Source: a virus
Strand: one strand, 5' to 3'
DNA length: 64,000 nucleotides
Virus record (IMG/VR): IMGVR_UViG_3300032222_000151
Location: 1 to 64,000 of that record
A program made the position numbers and the translations under genes. Below are positions 978 to 22,995 of the stretch, in pieces (position 1 is the stretch's first letter; every line of letters starts with the position of its first letter). The notes below the pieces were generated by a model. The model worked only from the letters and a program-made list of their open reading frames with translations. It was not told the DNA's origin and made no database searches.

Positions 978-1003
978 ATCCTGAGCATGATGTAAAACTG
1001 CTC
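978..1003 (+). ncRNA. Compact H-type pseudoknot element, copy 1
   Basis: ATC-CT-GAGCA-T-GAT-GTAAAAC-TGCTC: P1 ATC/GAT, P2 GAGCA/TGCTC. Covaries with copies at 19657 and 22469. Confidence 0.65.
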
Positions 1004-1008
1004 CGCAA

Positions 1009-10461: not shown

Positions 10462-10820
10462 CATACGAATGGTATTCACCACCTATGAGTTATGATGAAA
10501 TGGTTGAAACTCAAGGGGAGATTATTAAAGATTGGACCCTTGGATATTATCAGGGTGATTATGTATACCTGCTAAAAAATGGGGACAAATATGCGTTTAC
10601 TGTTATTGGATATGGATCATGCTCTGGATGTGATGCATTAGAAGGTTGTGGAGACGATGAAGAGTTTAATGAACTAAAAGAAGATATCGTAAACAGTATT
10701 GTTTGGGGAACTAAGCAAGATGTTCTTGACTATGTAACTAATCAGGAAGCAAATCGCTGGTATTTTCATGAAGAAGATTGGGTTGAAATTAGAAAAGAAA
10801 TTAAGGAGATATTAAAGTAA
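10458..10820 (+). CDS. conserved phage hypothetical protein
   Basis: YQGD...YGSCSGCD motif. Confidence 0.75.
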   Translation: MTYEWYSPPMSYDEMVETQGEIIKDWTLGYYQGDYVYLLKNGDKYAFTVIGYGSCSGCDALEGCGDDEEFNELKEDIVNSIVWGTKQDVLDYVTNQEANRWYFHEEDWVEIRKEIKEILK

Positions 10821-14108: not shown

Positions 14109-14318
14109 ATGATAACAAAACATCAAAAGACTAATATAGTTCCACTTAGAATTATTGGTAACATCTGTGGAGGCTTTGCTGGGAATCATTTATTTAAGGC
14201 TATGTGTCTTGATGAAGATGAAGACTATGGTTGGCGCTATAGGTACCACGAAAAAATGTGGGTAGTCTTAAATAAACCTTATACTCTATGGGGCACATAC
14301 TATATTTTTGAAAAGTAG
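14109..14318 (+). CDS. hypothetical protein
   Basis: 69 aa ORF ending KPYTLWGTYY. Confidence 0.6.
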   Translation: MITKHQKTNIVPLRIIGNICGGFAGNHLFKAMCLDEDEDYGWRYRYHEKMWVVLNKPYTLWGTYYIFEK

Positions 14319-14323
14319 TGCTT

Positions 14324-14395
14324 GGCTCCATCGTCTATCGGTTAGGACAACGCCCTTTCACGGCGTAAAGACGGGTTCGATTCCCGTTGGGGCTA
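14324..14395 (+). tRNA. tRNA-Glu(TTC)
   Basis: GGCTCCA/TGGGGCT acceptor; ACGCC-CTTTCAC-GGCGT; ACGGG-TTCGATT-CCCGT. Confidence 0.95.
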
Positions 14396-18244: not shown

Positions 18245-18283
18245 ATTTGACAGTATATCACATAACCTGTATACTTATAATAT

Positions 18284-18454: not shown

Positions 18455-18527
18455 TGGTGTGTAACTCAGATGGTAGAGTGCCGAACTGTTAATTCGGATG
18501 TCGCAGGATCGATACCTGCCACACCAG
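18455..18527 (+). tRNA. tRNA-Asn(GTT)
   Basis: TGGTGTG/CACACCA; CCGAA-CTGTTAA-TTCGG; variant T loop ATCGATA. Confidence 0.9.
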
Positions 18528-18601: not shown

Positions 18602-19138
18602 ATGAAAACAGTTGGAGATAAATTAGGTAATTTTGCTGTTACTGGAGTAAAACCAGGAGCACTAACCTATGAAGATAGTTCTTTTGAAGTATTAAATCAA
18701 GACTCTTTCCCTGGAAAGTGGAAGATTATTGCTTTTTATCCTAAAGACTTTACGTTTGTATGCCCAACAGAAATTGTTGCATATGATGCTTTAGTTAATG
18801 ATTTTAATGATCGTGATGCAGTTTTAATGGTAGGATCAGTTGACAATGAATTCTGTAAAATTGCATGGCGTAATGCTCATGAAGACCTTAAGAAGACTAA
18901 CTCATGGTCATTTGCGGATACAGCCCATCAATTGGCTGGAGACCTTGGTGTTCACCATTCATCTGGAGTAACTTATCGTGCTACATTTATTGTTGATCCT
19001 GACAATATTATTCAGCATGTGACGGTTAATAATCTTGATGTAGGTCGTAATGCAAATGAAGCACTTAGAGTTCTTGATGCCCTGCAAACTGGAGAACTTT
19101 GTGCATGTAACAGACCTTTGGGCGGAGAAACACTTTAA
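18602..19138 (+). CDS. ahpC: alkyl hydroperoxide reductase C (peroxiredoxin)
   Basis: FYPKDFTFVCPTE; C-terminal LCACN (mycobacterial type). Confidence 0.95.
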   Translation: MKTVGDKLGNFAVTGVKPGALTYEDSSFEVLNQDSFPGKWKIIAFYPKDFTFVCPTEIVAYDALVNDFNDRDAVLMVGSVDNEFCKIAWRNAHEDLKKTNSWSFADTAHQLAGDLGVHHSSGVTYRATFIVDPDNIIQHVTVNNLDVGRNANEALRVLDALQTGELCACNRPLGGETL

Positions 19139-19650
19139 TGTCATGGGTCGAACAATTAAAAGAAAGTCTTCCTGATTATGCTAAAGATATTAAACTAAAT
19201 CTTGATGCAGTAATCAATAGATCTACCGTTGATTCTGAGCATGCTACATATTTGGCAATTGCAGCAGCATTTGCAACTGGCAATGGCAAACTTCTTGCAT
19301 TCATTACTGCAAATGCAACAGATGAAGTTGAAAAGAACGCAGCACTAACTGCTGGTGCAATTATGGCACAAAACAATGTATGGTATCCATATCTTGAAAT
19401 GGCTGATGATCAAAATTTAAAAGGATTGCCAGCCCAATTAAGAATGAATGCTATAGCAACTCATGGTGGAACAACAAAGGCAAAGTTTGAAGCATACTCT
19501 CTTGCTTCGTCTATTGTTGGTAAGTGTCACTTTTGTGTTAAAGCACACTACGAAACATTGAAAGAAGAAGGCTATACAGTTGAACAGTTGCGTGATATCG
19601 GAAGAATTGCAGCAACAATCAATGCACTGGCAAAGATCCTTTCAGCATGA
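19138..19650 (+). CDS. ahpD: alkylhydroperoxidase AhpD
   Basis: LPDYAKDIKLNL, MAQNNVWY, CHFCVKAH; coupled to ahpC. Confidence 0.95.
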   Translation: MSWVEQLKESLPDYAKDIKLNLDAVINRSTVDSEHATYLAIAAAFATGNGKLLAFITANATDEVEKNAALTAGAIMAQNNVWYPYLEMADDQNLKGLPAQLRMNAIATHGGTTKAKFEAYSLASSIVGKCHFCVKAHYETLKEEGYTVEQLRDIGRIAATINALAKILSA

Positions 19651-19656
19651 CCAACA

Positions 19657-19682
19657 GTCCTGGGTACGACCTAAAACTACCC
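19657..19682 (+). ncRNA. Compact H-type pseudoknot element, copy 2
   Basis: GTC-CT-GGGTA-C-GAC-CTAAAAC-TACCC; compensatory changes relative to copy 1. Confidence 0.65.
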
Positions 19683-19687
19683 AATAT

Positions 19688-19760
19688 ACCTCTGTAGTTC
19701 AGTGGACAGAACGTTGGACTTCTAAGCCAAGCGTCGCAGGTTCGATTCCTGCCAGGGGTA
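19688..19760 (+). tRNA. tRNA-Arg(TCT)
   Basis: ACCTCTG/CAGGGGT; TTGGA-CTTCTAA-GCCAA; GCAGG-TTCGATT-CCTGC. Confidence 0.92.
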
Positions 19761-19802
19761 CTTCTAGGTGGTATAATATATATGAGTGTTCGAGAGGAAA
19801 TT

Positions 19803-21303: not shown

Positions 21304-21879
21304 ATGAACATAATTAGGCCATATAACAATGAAATAGTGGTAGTAGAAGACTTTATAAGCGAAGAAGAGGTAGGCATTATCAATGACCTCTCATCAAAAG
21401 ACCCTGGCCTATGGGAAGGATCAAATGATGGATCTGGCCTTAAGGAGTGGTACGGAAACCAACTAAGAATAGAGCCAGATAACCTAAAAAGTTCTTATTG
21501 GTACTATAGGGATTTGCTTGATTCTATACAGAAAAGATCTGAATCAATTTTTACTGAATACTATGGCATATCAGACTTTGAGTACCTTCCTATTAACTCT
21601 TTATCACGCAGAATTGGCCCTGGGCTTGGTGTTCATACCGACGAAATAGATCCAGAGCACCCTCAGTATAATCCAAATGAAAAGATAATTACTCATGGTT
21701 TTGTTGTTTACATAAATGATGATTACGATGGTGGAGAAATATTTTATCCTAATAAAAATATATCTATTAAGCCCATTGCAAGGTCTCTAGTAATGCACCC
21801 TGGGAATAAAGAATATGAACATGGTGTTAATGAAGTCAGGGGATCTACTAGGTACAGCCTTTCTTGGTGGACAAGATAA
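21304..21879 (+). CDS. 2OG-Fe(II) oxygenase (P4H-like)
   Basis: HTD, YINDDYDGGEIFYP, HPG, HGV, RY. Confidence 0.88.
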   Translation: MNIIRPYNNEIVVVEDFISEEEVGIINDLSSKDPGLWEGSNDGSGLKEWYGNQLRIEPDNLKSSYWYYRDLLDSIQKRSESIFTEYYGISDFEYLPINSLSRRIGPGLGVHTDEIDPEHPQYNPNEKIITHGFVVYINDDYDGGEIFYPNKNISIKPIARSLVMHPGNKEYEHGVNEVRGSTRYSLSWWTR

Positions 21880-21881
21880 AA

Positions 21882-22481
21882 ATGGAAATAAATAAACCAT
21901 TTAATAACGAGATAATAGTTATAAATAATTTTTTATCTAAAGATGAAATTCAGTCAATATTTAATTATATTGAAAAAGAAAAGCAAATGCATAAACCTGA
22001 AGGAATATCTTCTGAATATTTTAATAATAGACTTATACAACTACCAACTGAACAGAATATTGAAACAATTTCTGAAAAAGAAGGCACAAAAGATATTGCA
22101 AAGATTTATCTATTAAATAAAAACAATATAGTCAATAAAATTAACAATATTTTAAAAGCAATATCTGAAGAAAATCTTTATTTAACTGGAATTGAAAATT
22201 TAATTTATTCTGCTGATAAGGGAATGCCAACACACTTTGATAATAGCCCAGAAAATTTAGAAACAAATACTCACTATGGATTAGTTCTTTATTTAAACGA
22301 TGATTATGATGGTGGAGAACTTTACTATCCAAAATTAGAAATTGAGTATAAACCTAAATGTGGAGACCTTGTAATTCACCCAGGAACAGAAGAATATACT
22401 CATGGTGTTAGAGATATTTACAATGGAACAAGGTACGCTATTACTATTTTTGCTTTTACAAAAAATGAGAGCAGTTTATAG
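21882..22481 (+). CDS. 2OG-Fe(II) oxygenase (P4H-like), tandem paralog
   Basis: HFD, YLNDDYDGGELYYP, GDLVIHPG, HGV, RY. Confidence 0.88.
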   Translation: MEINKPFNNEIIVINNFLSKDEIQSIFNYIEKEKQMHKPEGISSEYFNNRLIQLPTEQNIETISEKEGTKDIAKIYLLNKNNIVNKINNILKAISEENLYLTGIENLIYSADKGMPTHFDNSPENLETNTHYGLVLYLNDDYDGGELYYPKLEIEYKPKCGDLVIHPGTEEYTHGVRDIYNGTRYAITIFAFTKNESSL

Positions 22482-22578
22482 ACGACTGCTCAGGTCTATC
22501 AGCCACGGGTTTCAGCCTGCTGACTCTCTTTTCATCGAGTATCCGTTGTAAAACCTTTTAAAGTCTCATAGCGGAATG
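22469..22578 (-). ncRNA. Candidate structured small RNA ending in pseudoknot copy 3 (22469-22500)
   Basis: TATAAT at 22585-22590; no ORF longer than 7 codons; three hairpins, then ATAGAC-CT-GAGCA-GTC-GTCTAT-AAAC-TGCTC. Confidence 0.55.
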
Positions 22579-22590
22579 TTTTATATTATA

Positions 22591-22995
22591 CTACTGAATT
22601 TCAATAGTCTTTGGAAGTTTGTCTTCTGGGATCTGCTTTTCAAGTCTTACATCTAAGATACCGTCCTTGAATTCAGCCCCAATAACTTCAACAAACTCAG
22701 GAAGGGTGAAGATATCTGTGAACTTACGGGCTGCGATGCCCTTATGTAGATACTCTGCTCCCTCTGGCAACTCAGTGTCCTGCTTCTCGCCCTTGATTGT
22801 AAGTTTGCGATTGTCTAGCGATACTGAGACATCATCCTTAGAAAAACCAGCCAAAGCAAATGACAGAATATACTCTGTATCATTTAGTTTGATCTGGTTA
22901 TAAGGTGGATAGTTTGTTGTTGTTGTTACCTTCTGAAAATTTGAGAAGGTGTTGAAGAATGGATCATTAAAAAGATCCAGTGCTGTTTTTACCAT
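22591..22995 (-). CDS. small heat shock protein Hsp20 (IbpA-like)
   Basis: NYPPYN, ALAGFSK, YLHKGIAARKF, A.FKDGIL. Confidence 0.95.
   Translation of the reverse strand: MVKTALDLFNDPFFNTFSNFQKVTTTTNYPPYNQIKLNDTEYILSFALAGFSKDDVSVSLDNRKLTIKGEKQDTELPEGAEYLHKGIAARKFTDIFTLPEFVEVIGAEFKDGILDVRLEKQIPEDKLPKTIEIQ

Follow-up and report, generated by a model that had tools for sequence, protein, structure and literature searches.

The window analysed here, 64,000 nucleotides of viral DNA (positions 1 to 64,000 of IMG/VR record IMGVR_UViG_3300032222_000151), carries three copies of a very small pseudoknot, at 978, 19657 and 22469. Copy 1 (978-1003, plus strand; read from the sequence, matched by a structural descriptor and by covariance model R1 at 38.2 bits, E 2.3e-9) lies between a DUF932-family ORF (26-970, plus; in the ORF list, Pfam PF06067, E 4.9e-47) and a gene for tRNA-Asp (GTC) (1009-1083, plus; ARAGORN, and Rfam tRNA at 68 bits). 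Seven nucleotides separate the TAA stop of the ORF (968-970) from the knot, and the tRNA starts 5 nucleotides past the end of the knot, at 1009; the spacer between them, CGCAA (1004-1008, plus), would be the 5′ leader of the tRNA. The 26 nucleotides of copy 1 read ATC-CT-GAGCA-T-GAT-GTAAAAC-TGCTC. Its 5′ half consists of one strand of stem 1 (S1a, 978-980), loop 1 (L1, CU, 981-982), one strand of stem 2 (S2a, GAGCA, 983-987) and a junction nucleotide (L2, U, 988), and its 3′ half of the second strand of stem 1 (S1b, 989-991), loop 3 (L3, GUAAAAC, 992-998) and the second strand of stem 2 (S2b, UGCUC, 999-1003).

Copy 2 (19657-19682, plus; sequence, descriptor match, R1 27.6 bits, E 3.5e-6) follows a CMD/AhpD-family (carboxymuconolactone decarboxylase) ORF (19138-19650, plus; ORF list, Pfam PF02627, E 5.8e-9), with 6 nucleotides between the TGA stop (19648-19650) and the knot. 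It too has 26 nucleotides, GTC-CT-GGGTA-C-GAC-CTAAAAC-TACCC, in which both stems are compensated (stem 2 GGGUA:UACCC, stem 1 GUC:GAC), and AAUAU lies directly 3′ of it, ahead of a gene for tRNA-Arg (TCT) that begins 5 nucleotides past the knot (19688-19761, plus; ARAGORN, Rfam). Copy 3 is on the minus strand (22469-22496; sequence, R1 34.6 bits, E 2.7e-8) and reads GAC-CT-GAGCAG-TC-GTC-TATAAAC-TGCTC, with a stem 2 of 6 bp (GAGCAG:CUGCUC). It overlaps the final 13 nucleotides of an oncoming 2OG-Fe(II) oxygenase ORF (21864-22481, plus; Pfam); the nearest same-strand ORF upstream, of the Hsp20 family (22591-22995, minus; ORF list, Pfam PF00011, E 4.4e-17), has its stop 94 nucleotides away. On its own strand copy 3 is directly followed by UCAUUUUUUG, and it is the only one of the three copies with a U tract. 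An earlier, sequence-only reading had reported the three positions, the 7- and 6-nucleotide distances from the two stops and the 5-nucleotide distances to the two tRNAs, and the sequence, the descriptor and the covariance model bear these out. It had also given copy 3 a longer P1: one stem is indeed longer, but it is the GAGCAG/CTGCTC stem, our stem 2.

Across the whole 118,809-bp genome the structural descriptor returns nine matches, seven of them with the conserved core; the four beyond the window, at 114182, 117314, 117849 and 118433 (all plus), cluster at the contig end in an apparent early region. A covariance model built from the copies of other phages recovers exactly these seven (27.6-44.7 bits, E <= 3.5e-6), the next-best of its 16 matches up to E 10 scoring 11.6 bits (E 0.21). 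A tRNA directly follows two of the seven. At gathering score Rfam finds six tRNAs in the window and nothing else, and a megablast search of the phage collection with 6 kb and 5.5 kb of the window gave no match. The window sequence occurs in freshwater, riverine and aquaculture metagenomes, with small shares in three RNA-labelled runs; the latter yield short assembled contigs, mainly of tRNAs and the Hsp20 gene, and the assembly carries no RNA-end information.

Fold and covariation

The element is an H-type RNA pseudoknot of 26-28 nucleotides, NNC-CU-GAGCA-U-GNN-(N)WAAAC-UGCUC, in which loop 1 is CU, stem 2 pairs GAGCA with UGCUC, the junction is a single U, and an A-rich loop 3 ends in AAAC. 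Stem 1 is made of 3-6 variable pairs closed by C-G and measures 3-7 bp in 135 of 136 instances, mostly 4 bp. In an alignment of 104 distinct viral-contig instances, picked regardless of stem-1 pairing, both variable stem-1 pairs are paired in every sequence, with four pair types each; the fourth pair is formed in 86 of the 104, and the covariation score was reached by none of 500 shuffles. Among the unique exact-core instances 132 of 133 pair at both variable stem-1 positions, in 14 pair combinations, and the 5-bp stem 2 shows compensatory double changes in four of its five pairs. The sequence-only reading had described a pseudoknot with compensatory changes in both stems and had named covariation in a larger alignment as a check; that covariation is found, and the description is upheld.

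A descriptor of the full fold, run over 1.19 Mb of viral loci together with this genome, gave 187 matches against 1 in block-shuffled sequence, and 33 of the 187 are non-canonical yet fully paired variants. The loose pattern CCTG..AAACT alone does not rise above chance (10 matches, 8.6 expected). When the closing pair was left free, 120 loci were returned, 111 of them already known from scans with C...G forced; three of the nine new loci have a G-C closing pair and one has U-A. A relaxed regular-expression scan was discarded: in DNA stem 2 is a palindrome, and matches to the reverse-complemented motif drowned out the rest. Nested folding, by a program without pseudoknots, yields just the stem-2 hairpin, at -4.7 to -9.3 kcal/mol (z -1.5 to -2.35). 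The tolerance of G-U pairs on one strand only (10 U-G cells in one stem-2 pair) and the near-constant co-orientation with genes point to an element that acts as RNA, not DNA.

The 3′ side of the knot usually begins with an A, followed by about nine G-poor nucleotides; each of the tail positions +2 to +9 has a G in 3-15 of 133 instances. The mean T count at +2 to +10 is 3.6 of 9 where the downstream ORF is co-directional and 3.2 of 9 where it is on the opposite strand.

Placement and distribution

The constant companion of the knot is a same-strand ORF that ends just upstream. With ORFs called crudely (longest ORFs of at least 50 aa, picked greedily), 157 of 184 knots in the viral loci and this genome lie outside called ORFs with such an ORF ending upstream, and in only 4 of the 184 is the upstream neighbour on the opposite strand. 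Between the stop and a 3-bp stem 1 there are never fewer than 5 nucleotides, and instances pile up at this limit (5 nucleotides twice, 6 nucleotides 24 times, 7 nucleotides 11 times). With textbook ribosome footprint sizes, a knot core 5-7 nucleotides from the stop would sit at the edge of the terminating ribosome. The stop codons beside the knot are ordinary ones (TAA 115, TAG 28, TGA 14 of 157). Ribosome-binding sites come 10-25 nucleotides beyond the knot, and terminators share no strands with it. Simple genome compaction may account for how close the knot lies to the stop, the next start and the tRNA.

The sequence-only reading had placed the knot between a stop codon and a tRNA, but the tRNA is no defining partner: one follows two of the seven copies in this genome and 13 of 186 knots in the viral loci and this genome taken together, starting 4-13 nucleotides downstream. 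Where tRNAs do adjoin knots, the arrangement is one-sided. None of the 186 knots falls within 60 nucleotides after a tRNA, and counted by type of gap, 14 knots lie between an ORF and a tRNA, 1 between a tRNA and an ORF and 0 between two tRNAs; the unrelated Arthrobacter phage Molivia has the identical ORF-knot-tRNA layout, there with an SSB gene and tRNA-Gly. Some knots, copy 3 included, adjoin the end of a convergent gene. A count of orientations gave 17 'convergent' against 4 'divergent' cases, but in at least four of the 17 the opposite-strand ORF is spurious and the site is an ORF-knot-tRNA junction, the corrected figures being about 7 against about 2-4, and the junctions were therefore used to judge direction instead. 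The element serves phage and mobile-element transcripts as a generic module at gene ends rather than as a device for tRNAs, and in the annotation of uncultured phage contigs it reliably marks where genes end and which strand is transcribed.

The knot stands just past gene ends in a great many unrelated phages and in some bacteria. Named phages with intergenic matches infect Mycobacterium, Arthrobacter, Lactobacillus, Staphylococcus, Bacillus, Moorella, cyanobacteria and Paracoccus, and the knot is also present in Vibrio phages; BLAST searches, whose sensitivity is low here, gave no intergenic match in phages of Escherichia, Klebsiella, Salmonella or Pseudomonas. The core extends to a 5-kb Microviridae genome and to contigs assigned to Saccharibacteria, Clostridia, Chloroflexi and Methanobrevibacter. 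In the Lactobacillus phages AQ113 and phiEF-1.1, the Staphylococcus aureus phage StauST398-3, D6E and a Microviridae genome the knot stands just ahead of scaffold and/or major-capsid genes. No recurring neighbour protein family was noticed in the contexts inspected by eye. In several bacteria an ordinary terminator hairpin follows the knot by about 5-20 nucleotides. There is also a bacterial family of tiny ORFs whose stop is the UGA inside the CC-UGA-GCA of the knot, or lies in frame 1-3 codons earlier, with a conserved Cys codon exactly 4 codons before the knot UGA (8 loci, counted by eye); these ORFs belong to no family in Pfam or NCBIfam. Rfam, applied to nineteen knot-bearing bacterial loci, reported nothing but tRNAs and, well away from the knot, one cobalamin riboswitch.

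A proposed roadblock at the 3′ ends of cistrons

We suspect that the knot works as a roadblock without the help of protein and caps the upstream cistron at its 3′ end, and we would put the probability of this reading at roughly 0.42. The knot would fold just outside the footprint of the ribosome terminating on the upstream ORF and, needing no protein, would mechanically hold up enzymes that thread RNA. A cut would then be made downstream in the transcript, by RNase P at the 5′ end of the tRNA for copies 1 and 2 and elsewhere by an endonuclease in the G-poor tail; 3′-to-5′ exonucleases would trim back only as far as the knot, and the upstream cistron would keep its stop codon and gain a capped, stable 3′ end. 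The sequence-only reading had proposed a protected mRNA 3′ end of this kind after RNase P cleavage, and the idea fits the placement data and forms part of our reading.

Fold, conservation and placement are matters of observation; we infer both the barrier and its direction, the direction from the excess of ORF-to-tRNA over tRNA-to-ORF gaps (14 to 1) and from tRNAs that start 4-13 nucleotides after the knot and never end within 60 nucleotides before it. At that spacing RNase P cleavage would leave only a short 3′ tail. For the barrier itself there are precedents: published experiments show the coremin motif of eukaryotic RNA viruses and its Watson-Crick variant to halt Xrn1, to stop scanning ribosomes and to promote -1 frameshifting (PMC6546385, PMC10520033, PMC10321173), and a fold-based block, an xrRNA, stops the bacterial RNase J1 in vitro. 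Against a 3′ cap, the enzyme that coremin blocks is a 5′-to-3′ one, not a 3′-to-5′ one, and coremin depends on a second hairpin that is missing from the phage element; the terminator hairpin that follows the knot in several bacteria would make a cap redundant there; and the position before scaffold and major-capsid genes fits protection of the downstream message equally well.

As a true xrRNA analogue, blocking in the opposite direction, the knot would stop RNase J, or RNase E scanning in its 5′-end-dependent mode, on the way from upstream, shielding the downstream cistron or tRNA and giving polycistronic transcripts segmental stability. We consider this unlikely, while noting that it draws on the closest characterised relative and on the RNase J1 result, that the scaffold and capsid genes behind the knot are those with the highest output need, and that the named hosts from Mycobacterium to Paracoccus possess RNase J, the enterobacterial and Pseudomonas phages having given no intergenic match at the low sensitivity of BLAST. 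It is opposed by the gap counts, since a fresh 5′ end ahead of an ORF arises in tRNA-to-ORF gaps too, where just one knot lies, by the missing second hairpin (hp2) that coremin needs for Xrn1 resistance, by knots next to a convergent gene, where nothing downstream is left to protect, and by the Vibrio phages, whose hosts are not known to have RNase J. A still less likely alternative is that the knot acts on the ribosome, standing at the mRNA entry site of the terminating ribosome and blocking onward movement after termination or read-through, so that a downstream tRNA, terminator or next ribosome-binding site is insulated from upstream translation. The hard lower limit of 5-6 nucleotides and the pile-up there speak for such a device; coremin blocks scanning ribosomes and, in promoting -1 frameshifting, must resist the ribosomal helicase; and the tiny bacterial ORFs that stop at or near the knot UGA, with their conserved Cys codon 4 codons upstream, suggest a coupling of translation to the knot. 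The same spacing is expected, however, if the knot merely avoids the ribosome in a compact genome, stop-codon usage near the knot is ordinary, and bacterial termination and recycling are not known to require a downstream structure.

We see only a slim chance that the knot binds a ligand as an aptamer or cleaves itself as a very small ribozyme, its conserved loops forming a pocket or active site. Its spread over many phyla, its pseudoknot and its many near-invariant nucleotides are the marks by which Weinberg et al. recognise 'biochemically sophisticated' RNAs, and it recurs in several intergenic copies per phage genome, as small ribozymes do; yet no expression platform overlaps it, the ribosome-binding sites lying 10-25 nucleotides on and terminator strands being unshared, no gene association is consistent, no riboswitch or ribozyme family matches at E <= 10, and 26 nucleotides with a 1-nucleotide junction leave little room for a pocket. 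Slimmer still is the chance of a protein-binding site, an operator for a phage regulator or a site for a host factor, or of a decoy RNA against a host defence nuclease. Conserved sequence in stem 2 and the loops beside a variable stem 1 is typical of a specifically recognised surface, and the apparent early region with its four clustered copies would suit a regulator, but the same core serves very different hosts, the Microviridae genome and the bacterial and Methanobrevibacter contigs, and no recurring neighbour family was noticed among the contexts inspected by eye. A signal in DNA, such as a recombination repeat, primase site or promoter, is very remote, as is a chance similarity, and both are already disfavoured: the GAGCA...TGCTC arms do form an inverted repeat and the motif does contain CTG, but the interleaved stem 1 covaries inside that repeat, G-U pairs are tolerated on one strand only, the element is almost always on the sense strand of its flanking genes, and chance is answered by the single match in shuffled controls against 187.

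If the knot is a roadblock, as we prefer to read it, phages would have a general and very compact means of choosing the parts of a polycistronic transcript that survive. The setting of stoichiometry in phages, for example of portal against scaffold and capsid, and the maturation by phages of tRNAs embedded in mRNAs are both poorly understood. A link would be made between bacterial viruses and xrRNA biology, of which eukaryotic RNA viruses have so far been the only known setting, and engineered bacterial transcripts could profit from a 26-nucleotide part for stabilising RNA ends. A wider claim, which we regard as doubtful, is that this would be the first class of exoribonuclease- or ribosome-resistant roadblock RNAs in prokaryotic viruses, a 26-nucleotide, protein-independent punctuation after ORFs that sets mRNA ends in phages of most bacterial phyla, in Microviridae and in some bacteria, and whose core would be common, by descent or convergence, to the coremin xrRNAs found in RNA viruses of plants and fungi. 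A bolder step, should this be true, would be to read the tiny ORFs ending on the knot UGA as switches coupled to translation, the roadblock having to be melted by the ribosome. Since the element is present in cultured phages of Staphylococcus, Lactobacillus, Arthrobacter and Mycobacterium, it is easy to test. Among these are the Phietavirus StauST398-3 of S. aureus, AQ113 of Lactobacillus helveticus, Molivia of Arthrobacter and Labelle of M. smegmatis.

Relation to known RNA elements

Several simple identities fail. Copies 1 and 2 run into CGCAA or AAUAU and then a tRNA, and a U tract at copy 3 alone does not make the element an intrinsic terminator, in which a U tract comes directly after a G+C-rich hairpin; there is no fixed -10-like signal downstream of the knot, as a promoter would have; and an ACCA tail, expected of a mimic of the tRNA acceptor end, occurs in only 9 of 137 instances. 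Literature word searches found no paper describing the element, 9-10-mers of the motif recovered from full texts only unrelated primer or miRNA papers among the matches listed, and it is not described in the main text of either the Minerva preprint or the '10,000 candidate structured RNAs in viruses' paper. In permissive Rfam scans copy 1 matched nothing, copy 2 gave a weak partial match of its 5′ part to GP20-b (9.7 bits, E 6), and near copy 3 there was an irrelevant 10-nucleotide snoRNA match. The sequence-only reading did not recognise a named family and had suggested the Rfam comparison: no family reaches threshold on any copy, but the element is not without relatives, which are the 5′ hairpin of GP20-b and coremin with its Watson-Crick variant.

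The preQ1-I riboswitch aptamer (RF00522) is likewise a very small H-type pseudoknot, and its consensus has an A-rich 3′ loop followed by C-U, as the phage element does. Stem 1 of the phage element is shorter, its junction has 1 nucleotide, and it neither overlaps a ribosome-binding site nor is linked to queuosine genes; neither preQ1-I nor any other riboswitch or ribozyme family matches the three copies at E <= 10, and none is found in the window at gathering score. A different parallel, drawn in the sequence-only reading, is offered by MALAT1, where RNase P cleaves at the tRNA-like mascRNA and the 3′ end that remains is held in a compact tertiary structure, an A-rich tail lying in a U-rich triple helix. 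The logic of copies 1 and 2 would be the same, with a cut at a tRNA leaving the upstream RNA with a 3′ end in a compact fold. The phage fold, unlike that of MALAT1, has no A-rich tail captured in a U-rich triple helix, its tRNA partner is present at just 13 of 186 knots, and the system is bacterial and viral whereas MALAT1 is nuclear.

The compact -1 frameshifting pseudoknots of the luteovirus type (BWYV, PLRV) are, like the phage element, small H-type folds: loop 1, of 1-2 nucleotides, occupies the groove of stem 2, a single nucleotide forms the junction, and an A-rich loop runs beside stem 1. The stem lengths are reversed, the phage stem 1 being short and stem 2 longer. Frameshift stimulators usually stand 5-7 nucleotides after the A-site codon position, and the phage knot is found at this same distance; a stop codon takes the place of the slippery heptamer, however, which in a frameshift signal lies 5-9 nucleotides upstream in an ORF that reads on, and no such heptamer was seen upstream of copies 1 and 2, so that a -1 frameshift stimulator is rejected. 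The coremin authors themselves compare coremin with the luteovirus-type knots, and the BWYV knot did not stall Xrn1 (PMC10321173).

GP20-b (RF03003; Weinberg et al. 2017), which the main text of that paper does not mention, has a 5′ hairpin with the architecture of the phage element: three upstream nucleotides can pair with the first nucleotides of the loop, the 5-bp stem ends in A-U and the loop ends in UAAAA. The structure line printed by cmscan marks only the nested hairpin. In Lactobacillus phage AQ113, where the location upstream of the GP20 gene is found, the knot and the hairpin following it ahead of the GP20 scaffold gene match the whole model at 26.2 bits (E 0.038), and in phiEF-1.1, StauST398-3 and D6E the next gene is a scaffold gene or stands in scaffold position. 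We nevertheless do not assign the element to this family. The gathering score is 36.2 bits, against 26.2 for AQ113 as the best relative, 9.7 for copy 2 and no match for copies 1 and 3; the 62-position model includes a second hairpin and a fixed gene context, unlike the generic phage copies, and in the window the copies come after ORFs of the DUF932, CMD and Hsp20 families and ahead of tRNAs or a convergent gene.

The closest characterised relative is coremin (xrRNA-C) together with its Watson-Crick variant (xrRNA-WCC), described in beny-, cucumo- and other eukaryotic RNA viruses by Dilweg, Gultyaev, Olsthoorn and co-workers (PMC6546385, PMC10520033, PMC10321173); the words 'phage', 'bacteri' and 'prokaryot' are absent from the latter two papers. 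The resemblance is close. Both have a short 5′ hairpin, of 3-5 bp in coremin, with covarying outer pairs and a C-G pair closing the loop; a pyrimidine as the first loop nucleotide; an A-rich spacer with AAAC and then U, many phage copies reading G-N-N-GUUAAAC-U as in coremin; and a pairing of loop to spacer that gives a compact H-type pseudoknot. In the coremin spacer A16-A20 (AAACUA context) are essential, and the adenines are proposed to lie in the minor groove of stem 1 (PMC10321173, which states that coremin had as yet no solved crystal structure). AAAC and then U are invariant in the phage alignment A1, though AAAC belonged to the selection pattern; the bases after AAACU differ from coremin because they form the Watson-Crick stem 2. 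In the Watson-Crick variant from a picorna-like virus GAG is paired with CUC, and the phage stem 2 ends in these same three pairs.

The differences are as plain. The 8-nucleotide phage loop, CUGAGCAU, departs from the YGAD (4 nucleotides) or YGNNAD (6 nucleotides) of coremin and matches that consensus only in the leading pyrimidine and the trailing A-D, and stem 2 has 5 Watson-Crick pairs against 0-3. For its Xrn1 resistance coremin requires hp2, a hairpin of 4 bp or more that begins right after the spacer, and the phage element does not have it: a hairpin of at least 4 bp starting 0-4 nucleotides after stem 2 is found at 5 of 136 instances, against 341 of 2720 random control positions. A G-C closing pair, which abolished function in coremin, occurs in a few natural phage copies. 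Coremin lies in the 3′ UTRs of RNA genomes, whereas the phage element follows ORF stops in the transcripts of DNA phages, in bacterial hosts without Xrn1. Taken as a whole, the comparison is best read, in our view, as one between counterparts, the phage element probably being to prokaryotic viruses what the coremin-type roadblock pseudoknots are to the RNA viruses of eukaryotes.

The knot in one phage genome and its covarying fold

The knot, an H-type RNA pseudoknot of 26-28 nt whose first loop is usually CU, occurs three times in the window, the opening 64 kb of one 118,809-bp contig (38% G+C, six tRNAs). Copy 1 (978-1003, + strand; ATC-CT-GAGCA-T-GAT-GTAAAAC-TGCTC) has the TAA of a DUF932 ORF 7 nt before it and a tRNA-Asp 5 nt beyond its end, and copy 2 (19657-19682, + strand; GTC-CT-GGGTA-C-GAC-CTAAAAC-TACCC) is set between the TGA of a CMD/AhpD-family ORF, 6 nt before it, and a tRNA-Arg 5 nt after it. 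Copy 3 (22469-22496, - strand), with a second stem of 6 bp, lies 94 nt downstream of an Hsp20 ORF, with an oncoming 2OG-Fe(II) oxygenase gene ending inside it. The sequence-only reading had located all three correctly, and its spacings, ORF ends, and tRNA starts were as claimed. Copy 3 is separated from the Hsp20 stop by a stretch (22496-22590, - strand) that has a UCAGC...GCUGA hairpin and lacks any long ORF. Four further copies, all on the + strand, are found elsewhere in the phage genome at 114182, 117314, 117849, and 118433; same-strand ORFs end 5, 12, 51, and 18 nt before them, respectively. A covariance model trained solely on knots from other phages recovered exactly these seven copies from the genome at 27.6-44.7 bits, the next match scoring 11.6 bits. 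The copies at 114182 and 118433 are each followed, 30-60 nt further 3′, by two nonamers, TTATCCACA or its complement, that resemble DnaA boxes (~10,510-10,560 and ~14,790-14,830 of L262, the far end of the phage genome, corresponding to 114.2 kb and 118.5 kb, outside the window).

At least 120 IMG/VR contigs carry the exact core (CCTGAGCATG, 3-10 nt, AAACTGCTC), as do at least 119 contigs from the prokaryote genome collection. Among the matches listed, the variable positions of stem 1, two per side, pair in 132 of 133 unique viral instances, using 14 pair combinations, and stem 1 is paired in 105 of the 126 genome-collection matches listed; the 21 that do not pair look like chance occurrences inside G+C-rich coding DNA. 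For a stricter view we aligned 104 distinct instances selected by fixed geometry, invariant letters, and a paired stem 2, leaving stem 1 unconstrained. Both variable stem-1 pairs form in every sequence, with four pair types each, and a fourth pair forms in 86; none of 500 shuffles matched the covariation score, and shifting the partners by 1-3 columns reduced pairing from 98% to 26-40%. GAGCA:UGCUC predominates in stem 2, with other fully paired versions (including AAGCA:UGCUU, GGACA:UGUCC, and GGGUA:UACCC, the last being that of copy 2) in 33 of 187 descriptor matches, as against a single match to the descriptor in shuffled sequence. The compensatory changes first seen in two copies thus extend, in both stems, to the larger set. 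Stem 1 most commonly has 4 bp (range 3-7), and its closing pair is C-G in ~93% of loci when the descriptor leaves that pair free; the nucleotide right after stem 2 is A in 97/133 instances, and the following eight positions are G-poor. Because it contains G-U pairs and its placement is strand specific, the evidence points to a knot that acts as RNA rather than DNA. Vibrio phage D456 carries a variant (L246:1001-1027) whose loop 1 reads CC, not CU; the small hypothetical ORFs around it are annotated on the other strand, and these annotations may be on the wrong strand.

Genomic placement and distribution

ORFs were called crudely (at least 50 aa, the longest chosen greedily) around 184 knots from viral loci and the phage's own genome. 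By this measure 157 knots lie outside called ORFs with a same-strand ORF ending upstream, and the downstream neighbor of these is a same-strand ORF in 130 cases, an opposite-strand ORF in 17, and no called ORF in 10. An upstream neighbor on the opposite strand was found for only 4 of the 184; 18 knots fall inside a called ORF, and 5 are without an upstream call. The distance from the stop to a 3-bp stem 1 is never less than 5 nt, and counts are heaped at that limit (5 nt, 2 knots; 6 nt, 24; 7 nt, 11; 8 nt, 5; 9 nt, 8; 10 nt, 11). The distance from the knot to the next start codon is broadly distributed, with a peak at 20-40 nt. By these two sets of distances, the knot is packed between the stop of one ribosome and the binding place of the next.

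A position just 5′ of a tRNA, part of the original description, is accurate for copies 1 and 2 but not general: a tRNA begins 4-13 nt after the knot in 13 of 186 cases. No knot of the 186 lies within 60 nt downstream of a tRNA. In the same loci, knots occupy 14/41 ORF-to-tRNA gaps (14/22 counting sufficiently long gaps), 1/42 tRNA-to-ORF gaps, and 0/40 tRNA-to-tRNA gaps; these loci were gathered for having a knot, so the fractions are not base rates, and the asymmetry between ORF-to-tRNA and tRNA-to-ORF gaps is unaffected. The unrelated Arthrobacter phage Molivia has the same layout, with an SSB gene, a knot, and tRNA-Gly in succession. A tRNA is therefore one of several possible followers of the knot, and its constant partner is the preceding ORF end (157/184). 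In the window, a near-consensus sigma-70-type promoter (18247-18275; TTGACA, 17 nt, TATACT; 11/12) ends ~8 nt before tRNA-Met, so that the tRNA-Met, tRNA-Ile, and tRNA-Asn cluster, which has no knot, seems to be its own transcription unit. The tRNA-Glu at 14324 also lacks a knot; a possible 69-aa ORF (14109-14318) with a promoter-like site inside it ends 5 nt before this tRNA, and either that ORF is unreal or the knot is not used at every ORF-tRNA junction. A relative from a wastewater library (run X18, near window position 18462) has a knot-like variant with a compensated stem 2 (GGCA...AAAC-UGCC) just 5′ of its tRNA-Asn homologue, at one contig's loose end and only a hint.

BLAST searches with two copies as queries placed the knot in unannotated intergenic DNA of named phages of Mycobacterium (Labelle), Arthrobacter, Lactobacillus, Bacillus, Moorella, Paracoccus, Vibrio, Staphylococcus aureus (83 records), Synechococcus, Nostoc, and Microcystis, as well as thermophilic phage D6E; gut phages and a 5-kb Microviridae genome also matched. 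In AQ113, phiEF-1.1, StauST398-3, and D6E it directly precedes a scaffold (or scaffold-position) gene and the major-capsid gene; in Firmicute siphophages (L241, which is AQ113; also L244, L245, L256) it follows portal/minor-head genes and precedes scaffold and major-capsid genes, and in the Microviridae genome it is followed by a small ORF and the capsid gene. Matches in the genome collection were assigned to Saccharibacteria (many), Clostridia, Chloroflexi, Thermodesulfobacteriota, Actinobacteria, Bacteroidota, cyanobacteria, and Methanobrevibacter, among others, and many of these contigs may be prophages or mis-binned phage contigs.

Bacterial knots often have an ordinary terminator within ~5-20 nt downstream. 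In contigs assigned to several bacterial phyla, the knot is accompanied by a tiny ORF with a strong Shine-Dalgarno site (L203:2113-2175 and L143:244-306, - strand; L208:5301-5363, L147:1957-2058, L129:6059-6139, L177:3991-4053, L174:1149-1211, and L195:973-1056, + strand) and the consensus M-K/P-R-F-x-x-P-R-V/T-A-H-C-x-x-G-C-x-x-x-S, to which Pfam and NCBIfam assign no family. Variation at third codon positions indicates that these ORFs are truly coding. They end on the UGA in the CC-UGA-GCA of the knot or, still in frame, 1-3 codons ahead of it; in 8 loci, with codons counted by eye, the final conserved Cys codon precedes the knot UGA by exactly 4 codons, and a terminator often follows. The tiny ORFs may represent a translation-coupled use of the knot.

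What the knot might do

Since stem 2 and the loops are strongly conserved across hosts without an obvious common phage-specific factor, we favor an RNA-intrinsic property, whether the knot folds into a tight tertiary structure or is recognized by universal machinery. By analogy with coremin (xrRNA-C), a roadblock pseudoknot of eukaryotic RNA viruses, and because a fold-based block also halts bacterial RNase J1, we think that the knot is probably a mechanical roadblock. The sequence-only reading had RNase P cutting at the tRNA and leaving the knot as a protective mRNA 3′ end. We favor this idea in a form widened beyond tRNAs, in which the knot would cap the 3′ end of the upstream cistron with or without a tRNA: the knot is tied to ORF ends, it fills 14 ORF-to-tRNA gaps as against one tRNA-to-ORF gap, it can be the last element of a transcription unit, and RNase P cleavage at a following tRNA would leave a tail of only 4-13 nt beyond it.

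Four points weigh against capping: the known activity of coremin targets a 5′-to-3′ enzyme, the terminators in bacteria come after the knot, a site just ahead of scaffold and capsid genes fits a knot that guards the RNA 3′ of itself, and the short distances may be due to compaction alone. A role directed at the ribosome is a serious third option, given that the knot keeps strictly to a minimum of 5-6 nt from the stop and that a family of tiny bacterial ORFs ends on the UGA within it.

Relation to GP20-b and coremin

Scans of the window and of each of copies 1-3 returned no Rfam family at threshold, in keeping with the sequence-only reading, which did not recognize the knot as a named family. 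The sole recurring weak match is GP20-b (RF03003), whose 5′ hairpin is laid out like the phage knot. In AQ113 (L241:1498-1567), the knot and the hairpin that follows it, 5′ of the GP20 scaffold gene, match the full GP20-b model at 26.2 bits (threshold 36.2), the knot being the 5′ half of this sub-threshold match. From the layout and the AQ113 match, GP20-b looks like a lineage-specific, extended form of a general knot module. The main texts of the literature searched contain no description of the knot in phages or bacteria, and the words "phage," "bacteri," and "prokaryot" are absent from two coremin papers (PMC10520033, PMC10321173).

Coremin is a 20-nt element in which a hairpin of 3-5 bp, closed by a C-G pair around a loop of the form YGAD or YGNNAD, is followed by a 10-nt spacer with an essential AAACUA part and then by a required second hairpin; it stalls Xrn1, blocks scanning ribosomes, and stimulates -1 frameshifting (PMC6546385, PMC10520033, PMC10321173). 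In its authors' model it forms a small H-type pseudoknot, and in Watson-Crick variants the loop GAG pairs with a spacer CUC (PMC10321173). The phage knot shares with coremin the hairpin and its closing pair, the leading pyrimidine, and loop-spacer pairing; many phage copies also have the (G)UUAAAC-U spacer, AAAC itself having been part of the pattern used to select instances. The knot differs from coremin in that it has an 8-nt loop and a 5-bp stem 2 and does without the second hairpin, which follows 5 of 136 instances versus 341 of 2720 controls. Given these shared and differing features, we file the knot not as a proven member of the coremin family but, by analogy, as an element whose action is most likely coremin-like.
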